The position numbers and the translations under genes were made by a program. From NCBI GenBank assembly GCA_949484645.1, contig CASYOT010000002.1, positions 2,912-66,911 on the forward strand: 64,000 nucleotides of DNA. The letters are read 5' to 3'. The DNA is from an uncultured Lachnospiraceae bacterium (GTDB lineage Bacteria; Bacillota; Clostridia; Lachnospirales; Lachnospiraceae). This document shows positions 465 through 39,038 of this stretch, piece by piece. Positions within the stretch are counted from its first letter, which is position 1; each line of letters begins with the position of its first letter. Under the pieces are notes generated by a model that did no database searches, was not told the origin of the DNA, and saw only the letters and a program-made list of their open reading frames with translations.

Positions 465-806
465 ATGGAGGAATTTTCAAATTTATTGTGGCACAATATT
501 GAAATTGTTCAGTGCATTTGTAATAAAATCGAGAATCAGGAAGCGTACATTGAGGATATTCGGGGATACCTTCCTTCTCTTAATCAAATGATTACATCAA
601 TATTTACAAATATGCAGCAAGGGCAAATTTCTTTGGAATTGAATCAAGGCTTTATTATTCAGGCGCTAAATGATATTCTATATGGAATAGAAAATGAAGA
701 TTCTGTATTTTTGCTTGATGTATTGCGATATGGGTTATTAGAAATTTATGGATACATAAGTAGTGAACTGCAAAGTGAGGGCTGTTATGAATCAGTTAAT
801 ATATAA
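465..806 (+). CDS. hypothetical small protein (113 aa), first gene of island
   Basis: ORF with GGAGGGG RBS 7 nt upstream of ATG 465; overlaps the Maf-like gene start by 20 nt, which suggests translational coupling; no recognisable domain. Confidence 0.45.
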   Translation: MEEFSNLLWHNIEIVQCICNKIENQEAYIEDIRGYLPSLNQMITSIFTNMQQGQISLELNQGFIIQALNDILYGIENEDSVFLLDVLRYGLLEIYGYISSELQSEGCYESVNI

Positions 807-4887: not shown

Positions 4888-5496
4888 AATAATCGCTTCT
4901 TTCTGATAATTATTTATAATGTATTAGTATATCACAGGAGTATAGCATGTAACAAGAATTTTTTGTAATGATTCCTGTTATTGATTTCTGTTATAAATAA
5001 TAGAAATGGTTAGAATGAAATAATTCGTAAATGATTGTATTTAATATGTATAAAGTTAAATTAAGGATAAGCCGATAAAAAGAATAAGAGTTAAATTGCG
5101 TTTTCTATCAGCATGGAAGCTGTATTTTATTCAGGGAGGAAGAAGAAATGACGAAAAGGAAAGACATGCAGCGAAAAATTGCATGGGGGGGGAAAATCAG
5201 AATCTACTAAAAAGTGGAAAAAAATTCAAACTTTATATGGATTATCTCAAGAGACGTTAGGGGCAATTTTTTTGTTGCCTTTTTTTTGGTGTCTGCCGTT
5301 TGATCCGGTTATGGCTTGTAAAGGATATAAGTGTGTTGGGATAAGAATGGATAAGAATTGTTGGAAGGACGCCTATGTTTGAAACAAAGACAGCATGGGA
5401 AACGCAGTGAATATACTACAATTCTTTTTTTGCGTTTTATAACATTTTTTGCAACAGAAGATAATATGCCAAAATAGCTGGGAAGAAGGAATTAAA

Positions 5497-7077
5497 ATGA
5501 ATTTAGAAGCTGAATTTGAACGGTTAAAAACATGTTCCCGTATTTTGATTTGGGGCGGCGGTTATCATACGAAAGAGGCGCTAAGGTTTTATAAATCTTT
5601 TTTTAGGGAACGGGACATACAGATTGTAGATAAGAATAAGGCAGGCCAAAGCATAGAAGGATATAAAATTATTGCTTCAGATGAAGCAGATTATTCGATT
5701 GATTATGTTGTGATTATGTCGTCAATATACCATGATGAAATTGAATATGCTTTGCGGAACAGACATGGTTATCAAGGGGCAGTGATAGGTTTATATGCGT
5801 TTCGGAGAGTTCTTTTAAAACTGGATTCATATGAAGAATGTATTGGGCATATGGAAGATTTTGTGTCTCATATGGAACAAGGCATAGCAAGTTATTCTTA
5901 CGACTATATATTTCAAGAAAACTATAGCGTATATAAAAAAATAAGGCTATATGCGTTTTGGGCGTCTTCTATTGGTGAATCAGTCCGGTATTTATCGGCA
6001 TATTATGAAACTGTTTTTAAGGATAAGGCAGAAGATGAATACTGCCTGTTAATTCCCTATATAAAAGGGAATGATTTCGCGAATGGGCAATTTATAGAGG
6101 TTGTTTCCCGTACAGTTCCTATGGTTACATATTGCAACTGTCATTTTTGGGAGTATGCGGTGAAAAAGTACAGAGAGCGTTTTGATTTGACGTCTTATAA
6201 TGAATTTAACGGTATTTTAGTGGATGCATATAATCAATTTGATGAACGGATTATAAACAGGACGTTTTGTGATAAAAAGTTTCCTTTGATTGCCTATACG
6301 CCGGAAGAACGTAAGATGGCGGAATATAAATTAAGGCAAATGGGCGTTTTTGGAGATTTCGTGTGTATATTTGCAAGAGATAACCACTATTTGCAGCATC
6401 AGTATGGACAGGCTTATGGAATTAATGAAATAAGAAATATGGATATCAATTCTTTTAAATCTGCAGTGGATTATTTGGAGGGACAGGGAGTAAAGGCAGT
6501 CCGCATGGGAAAAGTTGTCAACGGGCCGGTCAATCTGCCAAACTGCATAGATTATGCGGCGGATTTCCATAGCGACTTTATGGATTTATATTTATGCGGT
6601 AATTGCAAGTTTTATGCAGGGAGTTTGTCTGGGATTGTTGCGCTTGCCCAGCTTCAAAGCGCGCCTGTGGTTTTGCTCGGGGTGGTTCAGCTGGGGATTC
6701 ACAATTCAATACCATATAGGAGCAGAGATATTTACGTCCCAAAGAAAATATATGACAAAAATAAGAAACGTTTTTTAAATTTTACGGAAATATGGGATGC
6801 GGAAATGGCCGCTAAGGACAAAATATCAAAATATTATGGGGAACACGGGCTTGAGTTTATAGAGCTTGGCAAAGAAGAAATAAAAGAAGCGATAGTGGAG
6901 ATGAACGATAAATTAGATGGAGTGTATCAGGAAGACGAACAGGAAAAAGAACTTCAAAAGAAATATCATTTGCTGTTGGAAAACTGGATATTAGAGAATG
7001 GATACCAGTATTCTTATTTCTTGCATATTGACATAAGCGGCAGTTTTATTAAAAAGAATACATTTATGCTTGCATAG
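5497..7077 (+). CDS. hypothetical protein with PglD_N-like Rossmann N-domain and large uncharacterised C-terminal domain (possible transferase)
   Basis: Start chosen at MNLEAEF with GAAGGA RBS (track start 5449 also possible); N-terminal RILIWGGGYHTKEAL...IVDKN resembles the N-domain of paralogs at 26583, 28033 and 30528; no confident family. Confidence 0.4.
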   Translation: MNLEAEFERLKTCSRILIWGGGYHTKEALRFYKSFFRERDIQIVDKNKAGQSIEGYKIIASDEADYSIDYVVIMSSIYHDEIEYALRNRHGYQGAVIGLYAFRRVLLKLDSYEECIGHMEDFVSHMEQGIASYSYDYIFQENYSVYKKIRLYAFWASSIGESVRYLSAYYETVFKDKAEDEYCLLIPYIKGNDFANGQFIEVVSRTVPMVTYCNCHFWEYAVKKYRERFDLTSYNEFNGILVDAYNQFDERIINRTFCDKKFPLIAYTPEERKMAEYKLRQMGVFGDFVCIFARDNHYLQHQYGQAYGINEIRNMDINSFKSAVDYLEGQGVKAVRMGKVVNGPVNLPNCIDYAADFHSDFMDLYLCGNCKFYAGSLSGIVALAQLQSAPVVLLGVVQLGIHNSIPYRSRDIYVPKKIYDKNKKRFLNFTEIWDAEMAAKDKISKYYGEHGLEFIELGKEEIKEAIVEMNDKLDGVYQEDEQEKELQKKYHLLLENWILENGYQYSYFLHIDISGSFIKKNTFMLA

Positions 7078-12711: not shown

Positions 12712-14352
12712 ATGAAGATTTTGTTGGTGGTTCCGCAATACTATAGCCGGAAAGAACGATATTATCAAATGCCATTAGGCTTAGCGTATGTGAATGCAGC
12801 TCTGCGGGAAGCAAATTTAGATGTGCAATGCCTGAATATGAACCATATTGAAGCAGAAGACGCCTATTCAGTTTTAGCTGAACGGGTAGTAAATTCCAAT
12901 ATTGACGTTGTCCTTTGCGGCGGAATAAGCCCGCTTTGGAAAACGATTGAAAAAGTGTTTGATACAGTTAAAAGGGCAAAAGCTTCCATAATTACTGTGG
13001 GGGGGGGTGGAGCCTTTACGTCGGAGCCTCTTATTTCAGCGGAACTTCTTGAAGTAGATTATGCTGTAATTGGAGAAGGGGAGATTACAGATGTAGAGCT
13101 TATTCAAACGTTGATGGCGAATCAGAATGTAAGCAATGTAAAAGGAATTGTATATAAAACGCCGGACGGATATAGGCAGACGGCTCCGAGGGAAGAAATT
13201 GCCGATGTGGATTCCATTCCATTTCCATGCTATGAGGGGTTTGACATGGATTTATATTTAGAAAATCAAATGGTGAGCGATGAATATTATTCTTTTTATT
13301 CGGACAAGCCGAGAATTATGCCGATGATTTTAGGCAGGTCATGCCCTTATCAATGCAAATTTTGTTTTCACCCTATAGGAAATAAATACAGGGTGCGAAG
13401 TCTGGATAATTTTTTTATGGAACTGGATCAATGGAAGAATAAGTATGCTCCAACCTGTATTTTGATATTAGATGAATTATTTAGCGCAAGCGTTGAAAGA
13501 GTGTATGAGTTTTGTGAAAGAATAAAAGGATATGAGATAAAATGGATTGTCCAAATGCGGGTGGATATTATCACGAAAGAGTTATTGCAGACAATGCGGG
13601 ACGCCGGATGCCTCAGCATCAGTTATGGACTTGAAAGTTTTAGCCCTGCAGTTTTGAAAAATATGAGAAAACATATCTCTTTAGCAGACATAGAAAACGC
13701 TTTAAAATTGACTTATGAAGCAAAAATAGACATTCAGGGCAATTTTATTTTTGGAGACGAGTTAGAAAATGAGCATACGATATATGAAACATTGCGGTTT
13801 TGGTTTCAGCATCCAGAATATAAAATTAATTTGGGGTGGATAGAGACATATCCGGGATGCGGCTATTATCAGGAATTATCAAAAAATTGGAGCGTTGAGG
13901 AGAAAAAAGCATTTTTAGAAATGAGTGAATGGCTGACAAATTTAACAAAGATGCCAGATGAAGAATATGGGAAATATAAAGTTGTGATTCAACTGCTTAC
14001 ATTTTATTATAACCCAGATTGTGTGAAAGAAAAAGAGACGCGGACAGACGAAAATGGCGATGGGATTATTGAAGCGAAGTGCGTGCATTGCGGTTCGGTA
14101 AATCGGTGGGCAGGAGTTAAAAAATATCTGCTAAATCAATCGTATTTTAAATTATGCTGCCGGAAATGCAATCATAGGAATGTGATTTACAGCAGGAAAG
14201 AAAGGTTAAAAAATTGGGATTTAATTCTGCCATTATGTGAGAAAATGGCTTTGGCAACAAAGGAAGATGAATTTATTAAAGCGGTAAACGCTTTATATGA
14301 GACGTATATGGTGACGCATGACCCAGAAAATCCATTTCCTGTTTTGTTTTAG
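12712..14352 (+). CDS. B12-binding (class B) radical SAM enzyme, putative sugar C-methyltransferase or related
   Basis: N-terminal B12-binding-like region (MKILLVVPQYY...PLGLAYVNAAL) followed by CPYQCKFC radical SAM motif; 546 aa; contains an in-frame G9 tract at 12999..13007. Confidence 0.75.
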   Translation: MKILLVVPQYYSRKERYYQMPLGLAYVNAALREANLDVQCLNMNHIEAEDAYSVLAERVVNSNIDVVLCGGISPLWKTIEKVFDTVKRAKASIITVGGGGAFTSEPLISAELLEVDYAVIGEGEITDVELIQTLMANQNVSNVKGIVYKTPDGYRQTAPREEIADVDSIPFPCYEGFDMDLYLENQMVSDEYYSFYSDKPRIMPMILGRSCPYQCKFCFHPIGNKYRVRSLDNFFMELDQWKNKYAPTCILILDELFSASVERVYEFCERIKGYEIKWIVQMRVDIITKELLQTMRDAGCLSISYGLESFSPAVLKNMRKHISLADIENALKLTYEAKIDIQGNFIFGDELENEHTIYETLRFWFQHPEYKINLGWIETYPGCGYYQELSKNWSVEEKKAFLEMSEWLTNLTKMPDEEYGKYKVVIQLLTFYYNPDCVKEKETRTDENGDGIIEAKCVHCGSVNRWAGVKKYLLNQSYFKLCCRKCNHRNVIYSRKERLKNWDLILPLCEKMALATKEDEFIKAVNALYETYMVTHDPENPFPVLF

Positions 14353-14369: not shown

Positions 14370-15068
14370 TTAAATTGTGACATTAAAGTATTGTTGGGCC
14401 TTACAGTATTTTTTCTGCCTGTTTCTGATTAAGACACTGCCGTCAGGGTTACGCAGCACAACGGAATCATCGGAGACCGGCTGTCCATATACAAACGCAT
14501 CTACTCCAATGGATACACGGTTTCCGATTGGTTCATTGCCTATAATTTTAGCTCCGGCGGCTAAGTAGAGCCCTTTTCCGAGTTTTGGGACAGTTTCGCC
14601 GACAGGGCTTTCACCGGTATTGATGGTGACATTTTGGCCTATTACAAGAAAATCACTGTAAGCTGCATTGCCAATTACGCTTCCTACCGGATGTGTAAGG
14701 AAGAATATTTCCGGCAGTTTGCCTTTGTAAGAGATAAAAAAACTATGTAAAGTTTTATTCAAGTAAATTAATTTGTCACAGACAGATTTGTTTGCGGAAA
14801 GCTCCCACAGTGAGTTAGCCCAAAAATATAAAAACTGGGCATACTGGTCAGAATGCAGATGCGAGAAAAATGTTTCGCCTTGGTTATCTGAATATGCGGA
14901 ATTTTTAATAAAACGGAAGCAATGCTCTGTCCGTTCTAAGGCGCGTTCAAAAGCGGCGTCAACGTCGCTGCCTTTTAGAGTATGAGTATTGCGATCCGGA
15001 AAAAAAAGCTCTAACTGATGCAGCGTATATGTTTGAAGTTCTTGTTTCGGTAATGATAGGTTCATTTC
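14370..15068 (-). CDS. hexapeptide-repeat (left-handed beta-helix) acetyltransferase, serine-acetyltransferase-like
   Basis: C-terminal LbH repeats (VIGQNVTINTG...AGAKIIGNEPIGNRVSIGVDAFV) preceded by a helical N-domain as in CysE-like O-acetyltransferases; start set to the internal MNLSL with GGAAG RBS (track start 15182). Confidence 0.65.
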   Translation of the reverse strand, partial: EMNLSLPKQELQTYTLHQLELFFPDRNTHTLKGSDVDAAFERALERTEHCFRFIKNSAYSDNQGETFFSHLHSDQYAQFLYFWANSLWELSANKSVCDKLIYLNKTLHSFFISYKGKLPEIFFLTHPVGSVIGNAAYSDFLVIGQNVTINTGESPVGETVPKLGKGLYLAAGAKIIGNEPIGNRVSIGVDAFVYGQPVSDDSVVLRNPDGSVLIRNRQKKYCKAQQYFNVTI

Positions 15069-16033
15069 TTCTTCCTTTTTTGAATATAAATTGGCTCTAA
15101 AATAAAACGTGGGAGAATTGCGTATGGCCATACATGGAACCATATCGTAGGATATTTGTATGTATTTAAAAATAATATCCATTTATCGTCCATATCATAC
15201 TGATTATCCTCTACGCTGTATTTTAGGATAGAATCTTTAATAAATCCTTTCATGTCAGTAAGAAAGATTTTTTTCATCTGGCTTTTTGGAAAACCGGCTT
15301 TTACGGCTGTTTGGAGCAAAAGTCTTTTATATTGCTTTACCCAGACTTCAAATAAATTAAATCCGCCGCTGTTATTATTTTTTGCGGCTAAATAGGGGGC
15401 TTTTGTCAGGATCATTTTAGTATTTTTGCCTGAGAGAATGTGAAATACGATATGCGCGTGTAGAAAATGGGTTCCAAAATATTTCTCAGGATGCTTTATT
15501 TGTTTAAATTTGCTCATTTTCAGAACGGTTGCAGATATATACGTTACATAAACGCCAATGTAATTCATCAGAAGGGTTTTATCGTAAGTAATCAGATCGT
15601 TTGTTTCCCTAAGTTTTATTCTTGGCGCTTTTCTAATGTCCGGATTGAATGTCTGTGTTGAATATGTAAAAGAATTTATATTAATATAGGCTGGTCTTTC
15701 TGTTTTTATCAGATATAATATTTTTTTTATCGCTCCGGGCAGCAATATGTCATCGTCCGAGAGAAACTGTATATATTCGCCGTTCGCTTTTTGGAAACAG
15801 TTAAAAAAATTTTTATCCATACCCAAATTTTTTGAATTACGATAATAACGTATCTTATGTTCTTTGCAATATTTTTTCATTACTTTTGGGGTCTCGTCTG
15901 TGGAAGCGTTATCTGATACAAGGATTTCAACGCCGTCTTCCAACTGCCCTAGCGCGCTTTCTAATGACTGGCATAATAAATGACAGCGGTTATAGGTAGG
16001 GATAGCGACTGTCAGTATAATTTTTTGTCCCAT
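15062..16033 (-). CDS. family 2 glycosyltransferase (GT-A fold)
   Basis: IPTYNRCHLLCQSLESALGQ...VSDNASTDET...DDD motifs typical of GT2; start set to MGQKIIL with RBS (track start 16138 overlaps the upstream gene). Confidence 0.8.
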   Translation of the reverse strand: MGQKIILTVAIPTYNRCHLLCQSLESALGQLEDGVEILVSDNASTDETPKVMKKYCKEHKIRYYRNSKNLGMDKNFFNCFQKANGEYIQFLSDDDILLPGAIKKILYLIKTERPAYININSFTYSTQTFNPDIRKAPRIKLRETNDLITYDKTLLMNYIGVYVTYISATVLKMSKFKQIKHPEKYFGTHFLHAHIVFHILSGKNTKMILTKAPYLAAKNNNSGGFNLFEVWVKQYKRLLLQTAVKAGFPKSQMKKIFLTDMKGFIKDSILKYSVEDNQYDMDDKWILFLNTYKYPTIWFHVWPYAILPRFILEPIYIQKRKKK

Positions 16034-16037
16034 GATC

Positions 16038-16970
16038 TTACCTCTTTCTTTTGGTTTCATAATACTGGATTGTTTTTTGGATGCCTTCTTCAAAGGGAAT
16101 TTCAGGCTTCCAGCCGGTATCTCTTGTAAGAGGTTCAATATTGATACAAGAACTTGGCATTATGCCGGGGGAGCTGATTTTTCTTTCGGGAGGGGGAGTT
16201 TTTTCTCCAATGCCTAAAGGAAGCGATGGGTTTATCATGTCCCGAATAGTTAAGACGTATTCCCGAAGTGTTTTGTGCGTTCCGCTTCCTATTCCATATG
16301 TAATATTATGCCTGCCTTTCTCTCCAATTTTAATAATTGCTTTTGCTACATCTGATACATAGACAAAATCCCAATTAGACTGGAGATTGCCATAGACAGG
16401 GTATTTGCCATCTAAAAGAGTGGTAATCGTATAAGTCAGGATATTGTCTTCTGTTCTTCCTTCCCCATATGTGCTTGGAAGAACAGTCCAAATCATATCC
16501 TGCCCTAATTGCGCGGCAACGGCTTCTAACAGATAGTGGACGGAAGTTTTTGTGGCTCCATAGATGTCAATGGGCGTCTGTTTCCTTGAAAAATCAATGA
16601 CGCATACATTATAAACATATTCTGCCACTGTGCCTGCGGCCAGAAATAGTTTGCATTTTAAATATTTAGAGAGACGTAACATATCCAGAGAAGTTTCGAT
16701 ATTGCTTAATTGCAAAGGAATGTTGTTTTTTTCTTTCCCAGAAACGCCTGCCCAGCCAAGATGATAAAATATATCATATGTTTTTCCAGACAGCCTTTGC
16801 GCCAGTTCTTTAAATTGATAGCCGGCAGTTATTGTTTTTACGGAAGAATTATGAAATGGCATAGAGGAGGGGGAGGAGGTCAGGACGGTTACGTTAGCGC
16901 CTGATTTTAATAATTCCGCAACAACATATCTGCCGATAAATCCGGTTCCTCCTGTAAGAATGGCTTTCAT
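16038..16970 (-). CDS. NAD-dependent epimerase/dehydratase family (SDR) sugar reductase/epimerase
   Basis: MKAILTGGTGFIGRYVVAELL Rossmann motif; YGATK catalytic YxxxK; 310 aa. Confidence 0.75.
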   Translation of the reverse strand: MKAILTGGTGFIGRYVVAELLKSGANVTVLTSSPSSMPFHNSSVKTITAGYQFKELAQRLSGKTYDIFYHLGWAGVSGKEKNNIPLQLSNIETSLDMLRLSKYLKCKLFLAAGTVAEYVYNVCVIDFSRKQTPIDIYGATKTSVHYLLEAVAAQLGQDMIWTVLPSTYGEGRTEDNILTYTITTLLDGKYPVYGNLQSNWDFVYVSDVAKAIIKIGEKGRHNITYGIGSGTHKTLREYVLTIRDMINPSLPLGIGEKTPPPERKISSPGIMPSSCINIEPLTRDTGWKPEIPFEEGIQKTIQYYETKRKR

Positions 16971-20785: not shown

Positions 20786-20955
20786 AATGTCCTCTTTTCC
20801 GAATATACAATTTTAGTTACATTTAGGGGGATGCAGCAATTAAAAAACCCTAATACTATATCGGCAATTTTTGGGGAAACATGAGAAGCGGTTGTTACGG
20901 AAAAGTTATATTTGTCCGATATAAAAATAAAGTATGGGAAAGGATGAGGGGGAAA

Positions 20956-22641
20956 ATGAGAGAAGATGAGCTTTTAGAATATGGAATACAGCAGTTTGAG
21001 AAAGAAATATACGAGGAAGCTTTAGAAGCGTTCGTTTTATTACATATGAGAGAATATAACCAAGAGGAAATCTTAAAGAATATCTATTCGTGTTATATGG
21101 AAGGGAATGAGGGGCAGTTTCGGGAGACATATGGACGTTGTAGTATTTTTAAGGAGATTCCCTATGAAGAATGTTTGCTCGATTTTGTTCCATATAAAGA
21201 AGGGGAATATTTTATTTATGATAAATTAAAAAGGGGGTTTTTGGGAACTCTTTCTTTGCCTGAAATTGAGCGTGAAAAAGAGCTGAATAGAGAATTTGAT
21301 GATATTGCGGTAGAACTTGACTGGGACTGGCGGTTGTTTAAGCCTGCTTTGAAGTGGACGGGCAAACATAAACTATACGCCATATGCCATGACAAACGGC
21401 GCTCGGTTTCATTCTGTAAGATCCCTGAAATGGAAAAATATTTTCAGAAGGTGTTTGCGTTTGGGGATCGAGAAGAATACCGGCAATATTTCCATACAAA
21501 TACCAGCGTATTTTTGCCACGTTTTTTTTGGGGGAATCAGGATGACAAACTTGCTTTGGCGCATATATGGGAGGAGGAGCACGCTTACCGTCTTACGCCT
21601 CAGGGAAGGAATACAGAGAATGTTGTGTTGTCAATCGGGATACCGACGCATGACCGTGGGAATTTAGCTTTGGAAAAAGTGGTAAATTTGCTGACGATGT
21701 GTTATGACGCAGAAATAGAAATACTGGTTTCTAAAAATGGTATGGCGTTATATCAAGAGGAATATCGTAAAATTGCCGCAATTTCTGATGCGAGGCTTCG
21801 TTATGTGGATCATAATAAGGAACTGACGGCGGATATTTCATGGATAAAAACGGTTGAGCTGTCGAAAGGACGGTTTACGTTGCTGGTCAGTGATGAGGAT
21901 AGTGTGATTATTGAAGCGCTTGATCACTATCTTTCAATGCTTTTGGAAAATCCGGAATTGATTTTTGTAAGGGCAAAAACGGCGCTGCAATATAGTTTTA
22001 TCACGACAAAGGAGATGAAAAAAGGAATAGACGCCTTTTCTCAGGTTTTTCTCCAGAATAATTATTTATCCGGCGCAATTTTAAGACGGGAGGCTTTTAT
22101 GCGGCTTCCATTTGAAAAAATTAAAGAGGAGGCCAAAAGCAATGCGTATTATATTTCATATACGCATGAATGGTGGTTTTGCTTTTTAAGTTTCGAAGGA
22201 GATTGCCGTTTGGATGGAGAATGTCTTGTTGAAGAAGGAGACTCTGTACGGGAGAAACAGGGGGAGCAGTACAAAAAACGGGGAGAAGACGCATTGTCTG
22301 CCGGATATGATTCAGATGGGGGCCTGCAAAGTTATGCCACATATGAGAGCAGGCTGGAACAATTTAAAGGATACATTGAGTTTATTCACTATATAGAGGG
22401 AAAAGGCGGGGGAAATCTGGCGCAAAAAGGGGTTAAACTTGCAATCAACAAAACAATCAGTCTGATTAAATTGGCGTATTTTGGATTTCATTATAAGACA
22501 GATGAGATTATGGAAGTGTTGGACAAGTTTAGCAGGCTTTGCATATCAGCAGTGGAAGAATTTGCTTTTACTGCGGAGGAGAAAGAGTCGCTGCTTCGGA
22601 TATTGCTTCATCAAATTCAAAATGGTGGATGGGAAATATAA
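20956..22641 (+). CDS. large GT2-domain protein with helical N-terminal domain (paralog 1), candidate glycosyltransferase
   Basis: Central VVLSIGIPTHDRGNLALEKV...LLVSDED segment resembles a GT2 Rossmann/DxD region; start set to M26 (ATG 20956) with GGATGAGGGGG RBS; 562 aa. Confidence 0.55.
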   Translation: MREDELLEYGIQQFEKEIYEEALEAFVLLHMREYNQEEILKNIYSCYMEGNEGQFRETYGRCSIFKEIPYEECLLDFVPYKEGEYFIYDKLKRGFLGTLSLPEIEREKELNREFDDIAVELDWDWRLFKPALKWTGKHKLYAICHDKRRSVSFCKIPEMEKYFQKVFAFGDREEYRQYFHTNTSVFLPRFFWGNQDDKLALAHIWEEEHAYRLTPQGRNTENVVLSIGIPTHDRGNLALEKVVNLLTMCYDAEIEILVSKNGMALYQEEYRKIAAISDARLRYVDHNKELTADISWIKTVELSKGRFTLLVSDEDSVIIEALDHYLSMLLENPELIFVRAKTALQYSFITTKEMKKGIDAFSQVFLQNNYLSGAILRREAFMRLPFEKIKEEAKSNAYYISYTHEWWFCFLSFEGDCRLDGECLVEEGDSVREKQGEQYKKRGEDALSAGYDSDGGLQSYATYESRLEQFKGYIEFIHYIEGKGGGNLAQKGVKLAINKTISLIKLAYFGFHYKTDEIMEVLDKFSRLCISAVEEFAFTAEEKESLLRILLHQIQNGGWEI

Positions 22642-22938
22642 CATTTTATTTTGTTCTAAAGTTTCTATAGGAAATATCCGATATATATTTATAGCAGTGA
22701 TTTCGGGCGTATTGTAAAAACCCAAAAATCATGGGGGGGGGGGGTAAACAGAATGAATAATTTTGTTTTGGATCGTTTTTCCAATTATATAAATAAAGAG
22801 TTTTGTATTGCCCTTCCGGGTGGTTTTTCAAAGAATTATTACTGGGCATCTATGATGCGTAAATAAAAAGTTGACATTTGCCAACTTTTTTGTTTTATAG
22901 AACACAAGTAAAATTAAGAAGGGGATGAAGGGCTTTTA

Positions 22939-24654
22939 ATGGGAAATAGAATATTAGATTATGCTTGTGAACAGTTTGAGAGCCGTAATTATTGTGAAGC
23001 GTTGGAAGCGTTTGTTTTAGCTTATATGAAAGGTTATGAGCCGGAATGGGTGATTGAAAACATTTATAATTGTTATGTGGCTTGTAATGAGCCGGAATTT
23101 CGCAATGCTTATGGAAAGTGTGGGGCAGAGGTAAGCTATGAGGATTGCGTGTTGGACTTTATGCCTTATAAAGAAGGGGAATATTATATTTTTGATAAAG
23201 AGCGAAAGCAATTTATTGGAAAGTTCTTAGTTTCAGAACTAAAGATGGTTTCATCAGAGGAAGCATTAAATGAAATCGAGTTTGGCGCGGTGGCGGAAGC
23301 GTTCCATTGGAATCTGAAGGAAGAATATCAACTGCTTGCGGCGGCAAAAGACAAGAAAGTGTATGCAGTCTGCCATGAAATCAATTATATTTCTTCCTTT
23401 TATAAAATACCGGAGTTAGAAGAATATAATAAAAATGTGAAATTGTTTCAGGATTTCAGTCAGTTTCAGCAATATTTCCATAAAAATACGGGAGTTTATC
23501 TGCCCCGGATTTTGTCAGGGGATTTAGAGAGTGTAAAAGAATTAAATGAAATAGTTGAAGCGGAACATCAATTTAGATTAACTCCGGAGGGACGCAATAC
23601 AGATCACGTATTGCTTACGATTGGGATACCTTCACGGAATAGAGGGAATCTTTTGTTAAAACGGCTGGAAAATCTGCGGAACATAAAACTGGATGCGGAA
23701 ATTGAAATTGCAATTTCGAAAAACGGCGTGGATTTCTATCAGGAAGAATATGATCAAGTGAATCAGGCGCAGGATTCCAGAATTTGTTATTATGATCATC
23801 ATAAGGATTTGGTGGCGCCTGAGAATTGGCATTTTGTGGTAGAAATGGCGCATGGGAAGTTTGTATTGCTGGTTTCGGATGAAGATGACATTATTTTAGA
23901 TTCTTTAGGGCATTATCTAAAGCTGATAACGGAGTATCCGCAAGCGAGTGTGATAAGGGCAAAGTCCTGCATATTTTATTCACGTTTATCGGAAAGATTG
24001 TATGCGGAAGGGACGGATGCATTAAAAAAAGGATTTTTGAAGCAAAATTATTTGTCAGGGTTGATTTTTAACAGGGAAAAGTTTCTAAAGCAAAATTTGC
24101 TGCGGTTAGAAAAATTCCGGGAAGATAATTTATATTATTGCCTGTATCCGCATGAGTGGTGGTGCGCCATTTTGTCAAAAAACGGCGTTTATATGGAAGA
24201 ACCGTTTTTGTTGGTTCAGGAACGTGAGTCTGTGATTCAGGAAGAAAACTCAAAATATATTGAAAAAGGAGTGATAGAAGAAGGAGAGCATATTGCAAAG
24301 GGAACAAGTCTGCCGGCGTATTCCACATATGAAAGCCGCTTACAGCAGTTTTTGGGCATGATGGAATTTGTGCGTTGGATTGCAGATGGGGATAAGGAGC
24401 TTGCTTTTTTTTGCGTTGCAAGTTGTATAAGTAAAATTTTATTTCTATTGCTGCTGGCAAGGGAGAGGGGGTATGAAGTCTCAAACTTTATGAATATAGT
24501 TGATAAATTTTGCAAAATGTCTATTGAAGCAATCCGTGAGTTTGATTTTTCTGAGGAACAGCAAGTGAAGTTATTATCAATATTAAAAACAAGCGCAATA
24601 GAAACATATGGGCAAGAGAGGGAGATTTTTGAAAAAGAACAGAATGCAGGATAG
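22939..24654 (+). CDS. large GT2-domain protein (paralog 2 of 20956..22641)
   Basis: Aligns with paralog 1 over its whole length (EALEAFVL..M..Y...I.NIY.CY......F...YG.C; GIP..NRGNL; LLVSDED; HEWW); AAGGGGATGAAGGG RBS. Confidence 0.55.
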   Translation: MGNRILDYACEQFESRNYCEALEAFVLAYMKGYEPEWVIENIYNCYVACNEPEFRNAYGKCGAEVSYEDCVLDFMPYKEGEYYIFDKERKQFIGKFLVSELKMVSSEEALNEIEFGAVAEAFHWNLKEEYQLLAAAKDKKVYAVCHEINYISSFYKIPELEEYNKNVKLFQDFSQFQQYFHKNTGVYLPRILSGDLESVKELNEIVEAEHQFRLTPEGRNTDHVLLTIGIPSRNRGNLLLKRLENLRNIKLDAEIEIAISKNGVDFYQEEYDQVNQAQDSRICYYDHHKDLVAPENWHFVVEMAHGKFVLLVSDEDDIILDSLGHYLKLITEYPQASVIRAKSCIFYSRLSERLYAEGTDALKKGFLKQNYLSGLIFNREKFLKQNLLRLEKFREDNLYYCLYPHEWWCAILSKNGVYMEEPFLLVQERESVIQEENSKYIEKGVIEEGEHIAKGTSLPAYSTYESRLQQFLGMMEFVRWIADGDKELAFFCVASCISKILFLLLLARERGYEVSNFMNIVDKFCKMSIEAIREFDFSEEQQVKLLSILKTSAIETYGQEREIFEKEQNAG

Positions 24655-26582: not shown

Positions 26583-28040
26583 TTGGAACGGTTTGAATTA
26601 ACGGAAAAAACTAAACTATGGATTTACGGGGCAGCTTTTGGAGGGACGCTCTTATATGAAAAACTGCATAAGAATCATTATCAGGTGGAAGGGTTTATAG
26701 ATAAAAGGGCAGAGGAAATAGAGAGTTTATGCGGGCTTTCCGTCTATAGCGTAAAACAAGCCAAAGAACGTATGGGACGTGGGCAGCTAACAGTCATTAT
26801 TTCAGTGAAAAATGTGTTTGAACATAGCGGCATTGCCAGAGAGTTAATAAAAAATGGAATTACAAACATCATTTATAAGCCATATGCGGCTCTGAAAGGA
26901 TTTGCAGACGAATCAGCAAAAGAAATGTTTGAGCTTCATAATCAGTTGATTGATTGCGGCTTTTGTAAGGGCGGCAGGTTTTGCAGGGCGGACGAAATAG
27001 AAAAGAATTGGGAAATCCCAAAAGAATATCTGCTGGCCAAAGATTCCAAAATGCAGACAGTTTTTCTGCCTCTGCCTATGCTGTTTGAAAACCAAAGCGT
27101 TACGGGCGGATATAAGGAACGGAATGTTTGTTTTTTATATCCGCACATACAATTCTTCCGGTATCTTCAAGGAGAAGCCGGCGCTTCCTGCCAGCGCTAT
27201 CTGGAGTATTGTGAGATGGCAGTGGAAGAATTGGATTCTTTTCAAGTTACGGAAGCGTGGAAAGAAAATGTGATCCGAAACAGGGCAGATGTGTTTTACC
27301 AGATGAACCATGCGTTTTTGTTCCAGAAAGATTTTTTTGTCAGAAATTCGCCAGAGGCGGAATGGAATGAGGACGGATACTTTAACTTGAAAAGCGGGAA
27401 GCACAGAGCGGCATTTTTTGCCGCCCGCCGTCAGATGTATATTCCCGTAAAGATCACTCATTCGGATGCAGAAAAATGGATTTCTGAGGATAGGGCAAAT
27501 GAGGTGAAAAAAGAGCTTTTACAACAGGGCGTATTTGAATTAAAAGCTCCGGTTGAGCATCCATTTTTTTATCAGATGCCATGTACGGCAGAGAATTTTT
27601 TCTATGGCGTATGCTGTGCGTTGGCAGATGAACTCGGCGGGTTGTATTATCAAACGCCAATGGATCATGTACTGAAAGGCAAAAAGATATATTTGAATGT
27701 AGATGATTATGGGTTTGTCAGCCGTTTTTTCAGGAGAAGCGGGGCTATGGCATACGATGCCGATGAGAGGGACCGGAAATTGAAAGAAGCGTTAGAAAGG
27801 TTGTTTTCGCTTCGTTTTGGGAGGCTTGTCGCCGCTCAGGAACATTACGACTTGGCGGTGTTCAAAACAGACTGCCCGCAAAATTTGAAGCAATGTCTGG
27901 AAACTATTTTTGCGGATCATTATTTTATCCTTGCCCCAGAGAGTATTTTGTTGGAAACTGAGCGGATAAAAAGAGTTTATTGCGGGGCTGCGTGGGGAAA
28001 AAGCATGGTTTTGTGGCATTTGGAGAAATGTAATGTTTGA
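26583..28040 (+). CDS. uncharacterised protein family member 1 (PglD_N-like Rossmann N-domain + central DGHHR-type motif)
   Basis: TTG start after AGAGGGA RBS; N-domain KLWIYGAAFGGTLLYEKL...VEGFIDKRAEEI; central YFNLKSGKHRAAFFAARRQMYIPVKI; paralogs at 28033 and 30528. Confidence 0.5.
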   Translation: MERFELTEKTKLWIYGAAFGGTLLYEKLHKNHYQVEGFIDKRAEEIESLCGLSVYSVKQAKERMGRGQLTVIISVKNVFEHSGIARELIKNGITNIIYKPYAALKGFADESAKEMFELHNQLIDCGFCKGGRFCRADEIEKNWEIPKEYLLAKDSKMQTVFLPLPMLFENQSVTGGYKERNVCFLYPHIQFFRYLQGEAGASCQRYLEYCEMAVEELDSFQVTEAWKENVIRNRADVFYQMNHAFLFQKDFFVRNSPEAEWNEDGYFNLKSGKHRAAFFAARRQMYIPVKITHSDAEKWISEDRANEVKKELLQQGVFELKAPVEHPFFYQMPCTAENFFYGVCCALADELGGLYYQTPMDHVLKGKKIYLNVDDYGFVSRFFRRSGAMAYDADERDRKLKEALERLFSLRFGRLVAAQEHYDLAVFKTDCPQNLKQCLETIFADHYFILAPESILLETERIKRVYCGAAWGKSMVLWHLEKCNV

Positions 28041-29463
28041 CATTCAAAAAGAGAGCAGGATAGTCCTTTACGGGCATTCGCAATTTGACATTGTGAAAGA
28101 TAAATTCCGGGAACTAAAAGAACGTGGATATCAGGTGCTTGGATATATAGATCAAAGGGCAAAAGAGATTGAAACGTATGTACAGGCGCCTTGTTGGACA
28201 GTAGAAGATTTTCCAGTTGGGCTAAAAGAACGCCAAGACATCGTAATTATACTGTTATTGCAAAATGCGCGGATGCATGAGTCCGTTGTATCTTCACTTT
28301 GCGGCAGGGGATTTAAAAAATTTTTATTTATACCAGAAAAAGCGGATACATCTGAGAAAACATGTATGGTGCAAAAGTACAATGCCTTTATACGGTCAGA
28401 ATATGATGAGTTGATGGGGATTCCTGAATGGGACAGCTTGTGTTTAAATTCTGTAAAAGGTGGAAAGCGGTTTTTGAAATGTGGAAAAGAACGCTGTACG
28501 CTTTTGGTTCCGGTGGAAATGCTGTTTCTTTATGAACAGGAGCAGTCTTTAGAAGAAAACATCGCGTTTGCAGAGGATTATCTGGAGTTATTTGCGGTAT
28601 TGGAAGGAAAGGCATTTGAATGCGGCCGTTATTTTGATTTCATGGGAGCGGTGGAGAAGGAAGAAAAAGAAAAATTACTGGCTGACCGTTTGGCGTTATA
28701 TTGTTTGTGGGAACATTACAGACACTGCGATATAAATTATTTTATAGAAGCGGCTGCGCTTGTTTCATGGAACCGGAGAGGATATTTTAATATTATTGAC
28801 GGGCATCATAGAGTGATTTATCTGATGGCAAAGGGGTATAAGAAGATTCCCGTATCCATGCCGCTTAAAGATTATGATAAGTGGATAGGAGAGGCAGATC
28901 AGGCATTGTCCGCTGCGCTGCGCAGATTGCGCGTCCCAATTCCACATCCGTTTTTTTTGAATGAAGAATGTATCTATGAAACGCACTGGCAGAAAGTGAT
29001 TCATTATTTATATGCGGCAGGACAAAGCAGGGACTGCAGGTTTGTGGAAATAGATACTTATATGGGATATTATGCGGGGGCTTTCCAGAGAATTGTAAAA
29101 AAAGAAGCTCTGATAGTTTTAGAGAATGAGACGGATAAACGCTTATGTGAAAGTATGCAAAGGCTCATGCATCAAAAAATACCCATTTTGAACTATCCAG
29201 AAATTATGTTTCGCGAAACCGATCTTGTCTATCTGAAATTGGCTGGAAATGAGGAAGCGTCTTTTATGCGTTTTATAAAGGACGTAACTGGACAGTGTAT
29301 TTTGCTGGATATTCCTTGGGAAGAAGAAGGGAAGACGTTAAAAGAGGCTGTCCGCATTCTTGGGGGAGATTTGAAACAGATAGGCAGTTATCATAGAGAT
29401 AAGGCGTATGGAATTTATGTGATTGAAAGGAGTGTTGGCAATTATGGCAGAGGTGACGACTAG
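28033..29463 (+). CDS. uncharacterised protein family member 2
   Basis: RIVLYGHSQFDIV...VLGYIDQRAKEIE N-domain; YFNIIDGHHRVIYLMAKGYKKIPVSM motif (ParB/sulfiredoxin-like DGHHR); 8-nt overlap with member 1. Confidence 0.5.
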   Translation: MFDIQKESRIVLYGHSQFDIVKDKFRELKERGYQVLGYIDQRAKEIETYVQAPCWTVEDFPVGLKERQDIVIILLLQNARMHESVVSSLCGRGFKKFLFIPEKADTSEKTCMVQKYNAFIRSEYDELMGIPEWDSLCLNSVKGGKRFLKCGKERCTLLVPVEMLFLYEQEQSLEENIAFAEDYLELFAVLEGKAFECGRYFDFMGAVEKEEKEKLLADRLALYCLWEHYRHCDINYFIEAAALVSWNRRGYFNIIDGHHRVIYLMAKGYKKIPVSMPLKDYDKWIGEADQALSAALRRLRVPIPHPFFLNEECIYETHWQKVIHYLYAAGQSRDCRFVEIDTYMGYYAGAFQRIVKKEALIVLENETDKRLCESMQRLMHQKIPILNYPEIMFRETDLVYLKLAGNEEASFMRFIKDVTGQCILLDIPWEEEGKTLKEAVRILGGDLKQIGSYHRDKAYGIYVIERSVGNYGRGDD

Positions 29464-30527: not shown

Positions 30528-31757
30528 ATGGGTTCCGTCACAGGAAAAGCTTTGTTGGAAAATGGAAAGCGGATATGTGGGTTTATAGACAAACGGGCAA
30601 AGGACATACGACAATGCATCGGGTATCCGGTCTATGACATTGAGACATTGAAAAAGAAAGCGGGCAGACACGCTGTGATTTTTGTGGCGGTGAAAAATGT
30701 TTTTTATCATATGGACATTGCAGTGGAATTGTACGCAAATGGCTTTGAGAGAATTATATATAAGTCATGCCATGCCATTCATGGAACGATGTCAGGGGAA
30801 GAACAGTTATTAGATAAGGCGTATGAACTGATATATAAAACAGGGGACATTCCGGATTTTGAGATACCTATTGTACTGCCAAAACAGGAATTTCAATGGA
30901 CGCCAAGCAGGATTCTTTTAGAAACAGAGGAATATGTGACATTGAACGCGCCGTTAGAACAGATTTATACGGGAGTGACTGCGGCGAAATGGACAAATAC
31001 GCCCGTTTTGTCATTAATTCCGTATATTGAACTGTTCCGTTATTTTGAAGGGGACAGCCAGTGCAGGCCAGATGATTATATTGCGCTTTGTGAGGAAGGG
31101 GCGCGGAGTGAACAGATTGAAATAACGGATAGTTGGAAGCAATATGCGCTCGAAAACCGGTTTCATATTTTCGGGCAAATGCGGTGGCAGTATGAACATG
31201 AACCTGAGTTTTTTACCGTACAGGCGCCAGAGGCGGCATGGGACAAAAGGGGATATTTCCGCCTGCTGACCGGCAAGCACAGGATTTGTTTTTTGATTGC
31301 GATGGGAAAGACAAGCGCGCCGCTGAAAATTCGCAAAGACACGTGGAGGGCGATCTGTGAAGATCCTAAATTACATGAAATCCGCCAGATCTTAGAACGC
31401 AGCCCAAATGCGCAAATGCCGCTTCCGCATGTTTATTTTCAGGGAAACCGGCAGTTTCATTGTATATTCTATCAAAAAAAGCTGAGAGAACTTTATTGGC
31501 AGATGTACAAAACCGGAAAAATGTGTGGGCAGGAAAGAGAAACTTTAGAAATTCTCGATCAGACGCAGGACAGCGGATATTTTTCCCTGATATTTTCACA
31601 GATGGGCTTTTGCGTCTACAGGGATTTCAGACTGTCTTCTGATAAGAATGAAATTTATCAGAAATTGGGAATGAAAATTTCAGAACGGGCAAATAGCGCT
31701 TCAAAAACGCGGATAAGGCTGGATGGGGAGGGGAATTTTCAAAATGAAAACGACTGA
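30528..31757 (+). CDS. uncharacterised protein family member 3 (annotated start probably N-terminally truncated)
   Basis: YFRLLTGKHRICFLIAMGKTSAPLKI motif and GFIDKRAKDI N-domain; the conserved N-terminal segment ...AEEVYIYGASY is in frame upstream of ATG 30528 with no in-frame ATG, GTG or TTG before it. Confidence 0.45.
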   Translation: MGSVTGKALLENGKRICGFIDKRAKDIRQCIGYPVYDIETLKKKAGRHAVIFVAVKNVFYHMDIAVELYANGFERIIYKSCHAIHGTMSGEEQLLDKAYELIYKTGDIPDFEIPIVLPKQEFQWTPSRILLETEEYVTLNAPLEQIYTGVTAAKWTNTPVLSLIPYIELFRYFEGDSQCRPDDYIALCEEGARSEQIEITDSWKQYALENRFHIFGQMRWQYEHEPEFFTVQAPEAAWDKRGYFRLLTGKHRICFLIAMGKTSAPLKIRKDTWRAICEDPKLHEIRQILERSPNAQMPLPHVYFQGNRQFHCIFYQKKLRELYWQMYKTGKMCGQERETLEILDQTQDSGYFSLIFSQMGFCVYRDFRLSSDKNEIYQKLGMKISERANSASKTRIRLDGEGNFQNEND

Positions 31758-35937: not shown

Positions 35938-36845
35938 AACTTTGTTTAGGGACTGTCCAACAGGGATTGGAATATGGGATTAATAATAAGTATGGAAAGC
36001 CTTCAAAAGAGTATAGCCAAAAAATCTTTTACGAAGCGGTAAAGCATGGGATTACAATGTTTGATACGGCAAGGGCATATGGAGATGCAGAATTGCTTTT
36101 GGGGGAATATTTAAAAGAACATGGGAATCGAAATGAAATCAAGATCATATCAAAACTCCGTCCGAACATACTAGAAGGTTGTAAGGATATATACGATACG
36201 ATATGCCGGGAATGTGAAGGCACTTTAAAGCGGATAGGCGTAGAATCCTTAGACGGATATTTGCTCCATACGCCGGAGTACATCCGAGATCCCAAAGTCG
36301 TTTCGGCTCTTTTAAAATTAAAGGAGGAGGGATATGCTTCGCATATAGGCGTATCCATTTACAATATAGAAGACGGGGACGTTGCAATCAATACGGGGGC
36401 AGTTGACTATATACAGCTTCCTTTTAGCATATTTGACCAGCGCGGAAAAAACAGCGGATTTCTCCGGCGGGCAAAAGAAGCCAAAATTACGGTATTTGCA
36501 AGAAGCATATTTTTGCAGGGATTGTATTTTATGGATGCGGGCAGTCTGCCGGAAAAAGTGAAACGGGCAGAGCCTATGCTGCGGAACTGGGAGCTGATTT
36601 TAGAGGAGCGTCACGCCAATCGGGAAGAAGTCTTAATTGAATTTGTGAAACAGTCCAAAGAGATTGATTATCTTGTGTTTGGAGTAGACACAGTGGAACA
36701 GTTACAAAGAGATATTTCTGTATTCGAAAGCGAAAGTAAATTAGATGAAACTATTTGGAACATAATCGGAGAAAAATTTTCCGATGTGGAGGAAAGCATT
36801 ATAATACCAAGTTTATGGGCGAAACAAGAAAGGAAGGGAAAATGA
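35934..36845 (+). CDS. aldo/keto reductase family oxidoreductase
   Basis: MKLCLGTVQQG...FDTARAYGDAELLLGEYL and IGVSIYN AKR signatures; ATGA overlap with the upstream stop. Confidence 0.75.
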   Translation: MKLCLGTVQQGLEYGINNKYGKPSKEYSQKIFYEAVKHGITMFDTARAYGDAELLLGEYLKEHGNRNEIKIISKLRPNILEGCKDIYDTICRECEGTLKRIGVESLDGYLLHTPEYIRDPKVVSALLKLKEEGYASHIGVSIYNIEDGDVAINTGAVDYIQLPFSIFDQRGKNSGFLRRAKEAKITVFARSIFLQGLYFMDAGSLPEKVKRAEPMLRNWELILEERHANREEVLIEFVKQSKEIDYLVFGVDTVEQLQRDISVFESESKLDETIWNIIGEKFSDVEESIIIPSLWAKQERKGK

Positions 36846-37544
36846 TGGGAGCAAAAAACATTTTTTTAACGACAGAAGGGGACGCATGGTATAGGAGAAA
36901 CCGTGAAAAGTTAGAAGAAGAAAGTGGATTTTCGGCGGTGGATTTAATGATTGATTTTCTAAATAGACAAAAAAAATCTCTGGGGGGGGGTAAATGGCTT
37001 TTCGTGGGATAAGCTGAATATTTTGGAAATCGGGTGTAGTTATGGATATAATCTGGCAAAGTTTTGCGAATCATTTTCTTGTCAATGTTATGGAATTGAA
37101 CCGTCAAAAGAAGCGGTAGAAGATGGAAATAGAAGATATAAGGATCTGCCAATTCAATTAACTCAGGGAACAGGGGATCTTTTGCCGTATGAGGCGGAAT
37201 CTATGGATGTGGTTATAATGGGATTTTGCATGTTGTGGATGGAGCGGAAAGACATATTGCAGGCATACGCGCAAGCAGACAGAGTTTTGAAAACAAATGG
37301 GATTATGATGGTTTATGATTTTGATGCGAAAATGCCATATCTTAGGGATAATATCCATAATAGAGAAGTGTTTACATATAAAATGGATTATGCGCAGCCG
37401 TTCATGGCTTTTCCAAACTATTATTTAATGGATAAGACCGTATTTTGCCATATGGGAAATTTTTTTGACAAAAGAATACAGGAAAGAATATCTTTGCAGA
37501 TTTTATATAAAGAGTCTTTGGAGGATGCGTATAGGAAAGGATAA
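36842..37544 (+). pseudogene. SAM-dependent methyltransferase, frameshifted at an A8-G9 homopolymer (candidate phase-OFF copy)
   Basis: Two consecutive ORFs (36842..37006 and 37023..37544) together align to the intact paralog 37571..38266 (about 85% nt identity); the reading frame breaks at the G9 tract 36982..36990; an 8-G version restores ...SLGGVNGFSWDKLNILEIGCSYGY.... Confidence 0.7.
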
Positions 37545-37570
37545 AGGACCAGAGAAAGGCAGGCGGTAAA

Positions 37571-38266
37571 GTGGAGGCAAAGGAGATATTCTTAACGACA
37601 GAAGGGGACGCATGGTATAGAAGAAATCGTGAAAAACTGGAAGAAACAAAAAATTTTATTGCGGCAGAGATAATCATAGAATTTTTAAACAGACAAAAGA
37701 GCGGTATGGGAATGAATGGCTTTGCATGGGAGCGTTTTAAGATTTTAGAAGTCGGATGCAGTTATGGTTATCATTTGGCAAAGTTTTGTGAAGCGTTTCC
37801 CTGCCAGTGCTATGGAATTGAGCCGTCAAAAGAAGCGGTGGAAGACGGCAGTCATAAATATAAAGGCCTGCCTATGCAGTTAGTTCAGGGGACAGGTGAT
37901 TCTCTGCCATATGAAGCGGAATCTATGGATATTGTCATTATGGGGTTTTGTATGTTTTGGATGGATAGAAATCATCTGCTGCAGGCGTATGCGGAAGCGG
38001 ACAGGGTCTTAAAACCAAAGGGATTGCTTATAATTTATGATTTTGACACGAAGCTTCCCTATGTCAGAGACAATGCGCACAGTAAAGATGTGGATACATT
38101 TAAAATGGATTATGCAAAAGCGTTGACGGCTCTGCCGCATTATTACTTAATGGATAAAACGGTGTTTTGCCATAAAGGAAATTATTTTGATGAAGATATA
38201 CAGGAAAGGATTTCCATGCAGATTCTTTATAAGGAGGATTTCAAAGATGCATATATCAGAGGGTGA
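37571..38266 (+). CDS. class I SAM-dependent methyltransferase (intact tandem paralog)
   Basis: ILEVGCSYGYHLAKF motif I and VIMGFCMFWMD; 231 aa; GTG start at 37571 as in the track, with no in-frame ATG before it. Confidence 0.65.
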   Translation: MEAKEIFLTTEGDAWYRRNREKLEETKNFIAAEIIIEFLNRQKSGMGMNGFAWERFKILEVGCSYGYHLAKFCEAFPCQCYGIEPSKEAVEDGSHKYKGLPMQLVQGTGDSLPYEAESMDIVIMGFCMFWMDRNHLLQAYAEADRVLKPKGLLIIYDFDTKLPYVRDNAHSKDVDTFKMDYAKALTALPHYYLMDKTVFCHKGNYFDEDIQERISMQILYKEDFKDAYIRG

Positions 38267-39038
38267 ACGGCCGGATGTTTTGATTATGATACAGGCGAGG
38301 ACGGGGTCTTCTAGGCTGGCGAATAAAGTTCTGCATAAAATAAAAGGAATCACGGTATTGGAACATGTGATTAACCGGATGCAAAAGTGTGAAAATGCGG
38401 ACGAAGTGATTGTTGCGACAACTGTTGAACAAAATGATTTAGAGATTGTAAAAATTTGCGCAGAAAAAGGCGTGCGGGTTTATTGCGGTTCAGAACAGGA
38501 TGTGCTTGACAGGTATTATCAGGCGGCGCGTTTATTTGGACGAGACGGGGAAAAACATATTGTAAGAATTACGGCGGATTGCCCTATGCACGATTTTAGG
38601 ATTGTAGACAGAGTAATTAAAGAGCATTTTGCCCATCATGCAGATTATACCTCTAATGCTGAGAGTGAGACATTCCCAGATGGGTTAGATGTGGAAGTCT
38701 TTCGGTTTGAGGCATTAGAACAGGCATGGCGGGAAGCTAAATTGGCATCGGATCGTGAGCATGTGACGCAATATATCAGAAGATGTGAAACAATGACGAA
38801 ATATTCCGTAGAAAGCGCGGTTAATTACAGAGAGGAACGCTGGACGCTTGATGAGCCGGAAGACGAAGCGTTTATAAAAGAAATTTTTGACAGGTTATAT
38901 GAGAAAGACCCATTCTTTGGAATGGAGCAGGTATTGGAGACGGAACGAAAAGAGCCGGAATTAAAGAAAATAAATGCCGCTTTAATTCGAAATGAAGGGT
39001 TATTGAAATCATTAGACCGGGATTATATTGTGAAATAA
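38247..39038 (+). CDS. SpsF/CMP-sugar cytidylyltransferase family (CTP_transf_3), putative CMP-pseudaminic acid synthetase
   Basis: IMIQARTGSSRLANKVL motif typical of SpsF/KdsB-type cytidylyltransferases; start at MHISEG with AAGGAGGA RBS; upstream of pseI/G/C/H. Confidence 0.6.
   Translation: MHISEGERPDVLIMIQARTGSSRLANKVLHKIKGITVLEHVINRMQKCENADEVIVATTVEQNDLEIVKICAEKGVRVYCGSEQDVLDRYYQAARLFGRDGEKHIVRITADCPMHDFRIVDRVIKEHFAHHADYTSNAESETFPDGLDVEVFRFEALEQAWREAKLASDREHVTQYIRRCETMTKYSVESAVNYREERWTLDEPEDEAFIKEIFDRLYEKDPFFGMEQVLETERKEPELKKINAALIRNEGLLKSLDRDYIVK

Follow-up and report, generated by a model that had tools for sequence, protein, structure and literature searches.

How does a methyltransferase gene whose reading frame breaks at a run of nine guanines come to stand beside an intact tandem copy of itself, and is the broken copy a relic or a switch? 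The locus lies in the window analysed here, the whole 64,000-nucleotide (nt) stretch of DNA from an uncultured Lachnospiraceae bacterium (GenBank assembly GCA_949484645.1, contig CASYOT010000002.1, positions 2,912 to 66,911 of the forward strand), and an earlier sequence-only reading took the broken copy for the OFF state of a gene that varies in phase by slipped-strand mispairing. That reading is supported by length polymorphism of the G tract, called T4 here, on a clonal flank, and by alleles that are in frame on about 15% of contigs. We consider it likely that T4, which lies in the 5' part of the upstream gene copy, is a simple-sequence contingency locus formed by a hypermutable homopolymer: at T4 we find a mutable homopolymer within the frame, toggling between full-length and truncated products, and length variation among clonal genomes. 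The locus comprises the following elements.

36842..37544, plus strand: methyltransferase copy A, class I, S-adenosylmethionine (SAM)-dependent; OFF in the window owing to G9, 233 amino acids (aa) at G8
36969..36976, plus strand: A8 run, 5 nt upstream of T4, a stable internal control
36982..36990, plus strand: tract T4, G9, codons 47-50 of copy A, upstream of SAM motif I
37571..38266, plus strand: methyltransferase copy B, an intact 231-aa paralog with no homopolymer tract
38247..39038, plus strand: CTP_transf_3 cytidylyltransferase, SpsF/PseF-like, directly downstream of the methyltransferase pair

Copy A starts at ATG 36842, in an ATGA overlap with the stop codon of the upstream aldo-keto reductase gene. 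With G9, a run that we located exactly where the sequence-only reading had placed the break, its product is MMGAK...NRQKKSLGGGKWLFVG, ending at a stop codon at 37010..37012, 22 nt past the tract, and beyond that point a different frame of the gene stays open up to 37544. Deletion of one G restores, as had been proposed, an unbroken 233-aa open reading frame (ORF) that includes ...NRQKKSLGGVNGFSWDKLNILEIGCSYGY... and is colinear with copy B. The frame of copy A is thus ON at G8 (233 aa) and at G11 (234 aa), and OFF at G6, G7, G9 and G10, where the product has only 49-56 aa. Two details of that reading needed correction: the copies, put there at about 85% nucleotide identity, are 73.8% identical (516/699 nt) and 70% identical in protein, and the A8 run does not directly precede the G run but is separated from it by TCTCT. 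The A8 run plays no visible part in the switch.

Pfam assigns both copies to the class I SAM methyltransferases (Methyltransf_11/25, E 1e-15 to 1e-17). Against PF08241, with its gathering cut-off of 21.2, the score is 56.9 bits for the repaired copy A and 64.7 bits for copy B. T4 falls in a linker that differs in length among family members; the equivalent codons of copy B are AGC GGT ATG GGA, and SAM motif I of copy A, LEIGCSYG, lies downstream of the tract. Because the conserved TEGDAWYRRN block stands at the methyltransferase N-terminus and no ribosome-binding site (RBS) is seen in front of an internal TTG (37023), copy A in its OFF state should, judged from sequence, yield an inactive product.

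The state of the tract in nature was counted by exact-sequence look-up, in public assemblies, of the product predicted for each tract length. The exact protein of copy B is indexed in 959 blocks of these assemblies, and the sample names of matching contigs include mouse gut metagenome and XIAO15 mouse scaffolds. The counts for copy A were as follows.

T4 at G5, ON: 0 contigs
T4 at G6, OFF: 1 contig
T4 at G8, ON: 39 contigs, plus 20 called from an upstream start
T4 at G9, OFF: 220 + 101 + 6 contigs
T4 at G10, OFF: 30 + 15 contigs
T4 at G11, ON: 7 contigs
T4 at G12, OFF: 0 contigs

Copy A is therefore in frame (G8 or G11) in about 15% of contigs, and about a quarter of contigs differ from G9. 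Where the DNA itself was inspected, G11 was present in four samples, G10 in five contigs (up to 231 kb) and G7 in one (L019). The clearest single comparison is with a 231-kb contig (L001) that shares 99.3% identity with the window over 20.7 kb and whose sole indel is G8 for G9; its intact copy A is identical to the G8 repair of the window gene. A count of 16 contigs for G7, based on its 49-aa product, was dropped, since four of the five loci returned were contigs ending inside T4, which leaves L019 as the only verified G7 contig. Those four (L017, L018, L020 and L021) end exactly inside the G tract of copy A, giving rise to spurious 49-aa proteins in the collection; such breaks are consistent with mixed tract lengths or with low coverage. 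A variable-gap pattern scan with the tract flanks gave no matches in either the genome or the metagenome contig collection, and copy B used as a query on genome contigs of species representatives found no relative.

The lengths vary on backgrounds that are otherwise the same. Over a 12.8-kb flank of T4 there are only two haplotypes, 73 single-nucleotide polymorphisms (SNPs) apart. Haplotype one shows no SNPs among seven contigs, yet G8, G10 and G11 are all present in it, and G7 joins it when the comparison is limited to 2 kb; haplotype two carries G9 (the window) and G10. Since tract lengths differ where no SNP does, the tract changes on clonal backgrounds without base substitution, and a stably fixed G9, an outcome that would have spoken against a switch, is contradicted by the G7, G8, G10 and G11 of other assemblies. 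In the collection there is no product of the kind that A7 or A9 in the neighboring A8 run would give, whether T4 is G8 or G9. When the window is compared with seven loci at 99.3-99.85% identity, all indels fall in homopolymer runs, mostly G tracts, so that instability is strongest at G runs and not exclusive to them.

The history of the pair shows how copy A has been treated by selection. Repaired copy A compared with copy B gives a ratio of nonsynonymous to synonymous divergence (dN/dS) of 0.126, with a synonymous divergence (dS) of about 1.5; from the latter it follows that the duplication is old, and both copies are under purifying selection. Copy A is free of SNPs between the two haplotypes, and on 345 contigs its downstream frame of 173 aa is unbroken. 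The tandem pair, with G9 uninterrupted, has also been kept in a third lineage, which differs by 2.2% over 20 kb. Related species (L008-L012, metagenome-assembled genomes [MAGs] of other Clostridia) have a single methyltransferase gene, in which the Gly-Gly pair is encoded GGC GGC, and no G run of at least 7 was found within 20 kb in them. T4 is thus a lineage-specific feature.

Could T4 nevertheless be a neutral hotspot, unstable in a copy A that is redundant, with ON and OFF alleles as mutational noise in the first stage of gene loss? We think this unlikely, although several observations fit it. An intact paralog, copy B, adjoins copy A, and related species manage with one methyltransferase copy. 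The commonest T4 state is OFF (about 85% of contigs), and the lengths are roughly symmetrical about G9, without an excess of in-frame lengths: G8 (59 contigs) is about as frequent as G10 (45), with no sign that the ON state is favoured. These counts weigh against a maintained switch, and further points belong on the same side. Contig counts are not independent, as one run may occur in ENA, Logan and NCBI; the evidence consists of assembled contigs, whose ends inside the tract are merely suggestive of mixtures within a sample; and two T8 runs are also altered among the compared loci, the first in two of them and the second in just one. As to the enzymes, an NCBIfam scan of the methyltransferases gave the DVU_1556 family as best match, at 46-53 bits against a cut-off of 155, with no model specific for pseudaminic acid (Pse) or legionaminic acid (Leg) listed, and a PDB search returned generic class I enzymes only; the two copies fit no characterised nonulosonate methylase model among those of NCBIfam.

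Against gene loss stands the dN/dS of 0.13 across an old duplication with dS of about 1.5, because of which copy A is not a decaying pseudogene; its intact downstream frame and the in-frame alleles on about 15% of contigs are likewise not those of a gene in decay. Hundreds of contigs carry no second disabling mutation in copy A, and T4 has stayed uninterrupted in the lineage 2.2% diverged. Moreover, the window holds four long G tracts in one surface-glycan island and no G7, which resembles maintained mutability rather than decay.

A different proposal, which we regard as improbable and which is compatible with a phase-variable T4, is that the switch leaks: slippage by RNA polymerase or ribosomal frameshifting at G9 would restore some enzyme, and tract length would tune its amount. 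In its favour, transcriptional slippage on long homopolymers is documented, mainly on A or T runs of nine or more; slippage is weaker on G/C than on A/T runs, which speaks against it here. The stop codon comes 22 nt after T4, and no stimulatory structure or slippery heptamer was seen at the tract, though no search for one was made.

That the differences in T4 are homopolymer errors of short-read assembly around one fixed true length is very unlikely, for although homopolymers are error-prone, several contigs break within T4 and 12-16 extra gap columns make two loci (L023 and L025) appear rich in errors, the lengths span up to 4 nt with about a quarter of contigs other than G9, the same variants occur in separate samples (G11 in four, G10 in five contigs up to 231 kb), G7, G8, G10 and G11 occur on SNP-identical flanks of 2-12.8 kb, all tracts are shorter than the usual assembly k-mers, and the A8 run 5 nt away shows no variation.

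A contingency locus at T4 would not be alone in the window, where three further long G tracts also vary in length.

5148, plus strand: ATG of the short leader ORF that contains T1, with a strong RBS, GGAGG
5185..5192, plus strand: tract T1, G8, in the short leader ORF
5497..7077, plus strand: TIGR04372-family glycosyltransferase gene, about 300 nt downstream of T1
12712..14352, plus strand: B12-binding radical SAM gene with T2, 546 aa, in frame (ON) in the window
12999..13007, plus strand: tract T2, G9, part of VGGGG in the B12-binding domain
22733..22744, plus strand: tract T3, an intergenic G12 between glycosyltransferase genes 20881..22641 and 22939..24654

At T2, G9 gives the full-length, methylase-like B12-radical-SAM protein (about 300 contigs), and G7 (about 23 contigs), G8 (about 52), G10 (about 86) and G11 (about 9) shorten it to 112-115 aa, about 170 truncated contigs in total. 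The same variants appear on each of two allelic backgrounds, E80 and K80, and G8 was also seen in DNA. The states of different tracts mix freely on single contigs, as the window has T2 ON with T4 OFF and NODE_17 has both ON, and six further loci (L002-L007) have T2 OFF with varied T1 and T3.

The other two tracts lie ahead of or between genes. T1 has G8, G9, G10 or G11 in other contigs, and a terminator-like hairpin (5259..5282), which comes from a consensus terminator scan and is a lead only, follows it. With G8 the leader stops at 5208, with G9 at 5258, exactly at the foot of the hairpin, and with G10 it reads through the hairpin to 5381, an arrangement that suggests, speculatively and by analogy, attenuation-like control of the downstream glycosyltransferase gene. 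The likeness, in outline, is to the leader-peptide attenuation switch of the Pil1 pilus of Streptococcus gallolyticus (PMC3894217), where a repeat likewise lies in a leader ORF, with a terminator-like hairpin and a surface-structure gene downstream, and where as at T1 the repeat length sets the position of the leader stop relative to the hairpin; the repeat of T1 is a homopolymer. T3, which ranges from G10 to G17 in other contigs, separates two glycosyltransferases that are tandem paralogs of 41% aa identity, and a conserved 37-aa ORF (22753..22866) follows it. T3 was considered as a tract at a start codon and rejected in that role, as the commoner allele has AAG, not ATG, ahead of the tract. 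Promoter scans around T1 and T3 gave scores no better than those of shuffled sequence.

One of the altered T8 runs, at about 15714..15721 (A8 on the coding strand), lies inside a minus-strand GT2 glycosyltransferase gene (15062..16138). It is T7 in two loci (L002 and L006), which truncates the protein to 107 aa, and it could be either a poly-A switch or one inherited lesion.

The long G runs were also set against chance. The window has 41.7% G+C, with more G than C on this strand, and its G runs number 46 at G5, 6 at G6 and none at G7, followed by G8, G9, G9 and G12; no C run exceeds 5. Under an order-3 Markov model whose training sequence was the window including the tracts, a conservative choice, 300 replicates had a mean of 1.3 runs of at least G8, with a probability of 0.04 for at least four such runs and of 0.007 for a run of at least 12, and none of the 300 replicates had three runs of at least G9. 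We regard this statistic as moderate evidence and the population data as decisive.

What kind of region carries these tracts? The glycan island spans about 760 to 55,400 of the window and is followed by riboflavin and biotin genes. Its first gene is the following.

763..2685, plus strand: Maf-type flagellin glycosyltransferase with an MptE-like domain and a weak Maf_flag10_N match, without a poly-G tract

Because a Maf gene marks it, the island is a flagellin glycosylation island. Besides Maf it contains heptose-type genes and several radical-SAM/SPASM and thiamine pyrophosphate (TPP) enzymes. It encodes PseB-, PseC-, PseG-, PseH- and PseI-like proteins, and a second NeuB is accompanied by a NeuC-like epimerase, a cytidylyltransferase, a PglD-like acetyltransferase, a dehydratase and an aminotransferase, a set typical of the legionaminic pathway. 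Two loci that extend beyond the window (L027 and L028) have, immediately upstream of it, FliW, CsrA, FlaG, FliD, FliS, one or two flagellins, a 113-aa gene and Maf; the number of flagellin genes differs between them, with one in L027 (13577..14689) and two in L028 (13577..16035). The region thus has the features of a Campylobacter-type island, namely adjacent flagellin, Maf, Pse/Leg pathways and four length-polymorphic poly-G tracts. The related species L008-L012 share with it a cassette of MT_23, a 288-aa protein, a TPP enzyme, an aldo-keto reductase, the methyltransferase, CTP_transf_3, a class-III aminotransferase and NeuB. Its TPP enzyme and its reductase hint that the nonulosonate bears an unusual substituent, acyl or side-chain. 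For three large ORFs of the island (485, 476 and 409 aa, in 26583..29463 and 30528..31757) no Pfam family passes the threshold.

The sequence-only reading had likened the methyltransferase pair to the poly-G-controlled methyltransferase and maf genes of Campylobacter, and the likeness holds in part: the behaviour, the flagellin-island context and three further tracts agree with it, whereas the gene families differ and Maf is free of a tract. C. jejuni is not known to possess mismatch repair. In its flagellin locus, poly-G/C genes include cj1295/cj1296, cj1305c/1306c/1310c and the maf genes cj1318/cj1335, together with an intergenic tract at cj1321. The species has 29 poly-G/C tracts, 23 in reading frames and 3 intergenic, typically G8-G10, and several of them belong to paralog pairs within the flagellar glycosylation locus, with cj1295 carrying 9G at nt +143 (PMC4965091). 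Frameshift ON and OFF states there change the glycan decoration (PMC3068675). As in C. jejuni, G8-G10 tracts of our island lie in the 5' part of frames or between genes and are clustered in a flagellin glycosylation island with Maf and Pse/Leg genes and tandem paralog pairs. Unlike C. jejuni, an epsilonproteobacterial pathogen, the host is a mouse-gut commensal of Gram-positive-type Clostridia, and its tracts fall in genes for a class I methyltransferase and a B12-radical-SAM enzyme and in glycosyltransferase leaders. By family assignment these genes stand outside the phase-variable families of Campylobacter (maf/1318, 617 and Cj1295), and the window's only Maf lacks any G or C run of at least 7. 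Cj1325/6, considered as a parallel in the form of a poly-G methyltransferase, is absent from the 28 loci listed in PMC4965091 and forms no part of the comparison.

Another related system, by the Pse/Leg genes, Maf and sps-like pseF/pseG/pseC, is the flagellin island of Clostridium (C. butyricum CDC_51208, C. botulinum and C. beijerinckii; PMC13317340). There a "second MTase" of undefined role, conserved with the genes for cytidine monophosphate-pseudaminic acid (CMP-Pse) and non-homologous to PtmH, also lies directly upstream of pseF (PMC13317340). In contrast to those islands, the methyltransferase is duplicated here and one copy has a variable G tract. The same 2026 survey of Clostridium flagellin islands has no homopolymer tracts or phase variation in Clostridium and cites phase variation for C. 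jejuni only (PMC13317340). In the full-text literature we found no report of phase variation by simple sequence repeats in flagellin glycosylation islands of Clostridia or in Lachnospiraceae-type or other gut-commensal Firmicutes.

With T4 read as a contingency locus, replication strand slippage would add or remove guanines at the tract, probably reversibly within one lineage. G8 and G11 would keep the frame and yield the enzyme of 233 or 234 aa, G6, G7, G9 and G10 would stop translation before the catalytic domain, and the window would represent the commonest state, G9 OFF. Copy B, without a tract, would presumably be made constitutively. Given its position directly upstream of the pseF-like gene in the pseudaminic-acid cassette, copy A may methylate a pseudaminic-acid-type sugar or its substituent, and its switching would then add or remove one methyl group, a shift of 14 Da, on the nonulosonate glycan of flagellin. 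Early termination in the OFF state might also lower the expression of downstream genes. Together, T1 to T4 would yield mixed flagellar glycoforms in a population, and any benefit may lie in evasion of antibodies or phage.

Poly-G contingency loci in flagellar glycosylation are textbook knowledge for Campylobacter; here this known mechanism is found in a new phylum and host and in new genes. Hundreds of mouse-gut assemblies form a natural experiment in which one strain has differing tract lengths at four sites of the island, and that such clonal variation is already visible across public metagenomes would surprise phase-variation specialists. We tentatively propose, as an idea that may or may not hold, that a non-pathogenic commensal of the mouse gut, a member of the Clostridia, maintains a Campylobacter-like set of at least four poly-G tracts concentrated in the flagellin island, with up to about 16 glycoform combinations arising stochastically per clone, a convergent "phasome" for escape from anti-flagellin immunoglobulin A (IgA), innate recognition or flagellotropic phage. 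If the glycan does change, gene calls of such islands in MAGs would vary from sample to sample, commensal flagellin, a major target of mucosal IgA and of TLR5, would vary in its antigens inside a single strain, and the locus would serve as a tractable Gram-positive model of phase variation at several loci in organisms other than pathogens.

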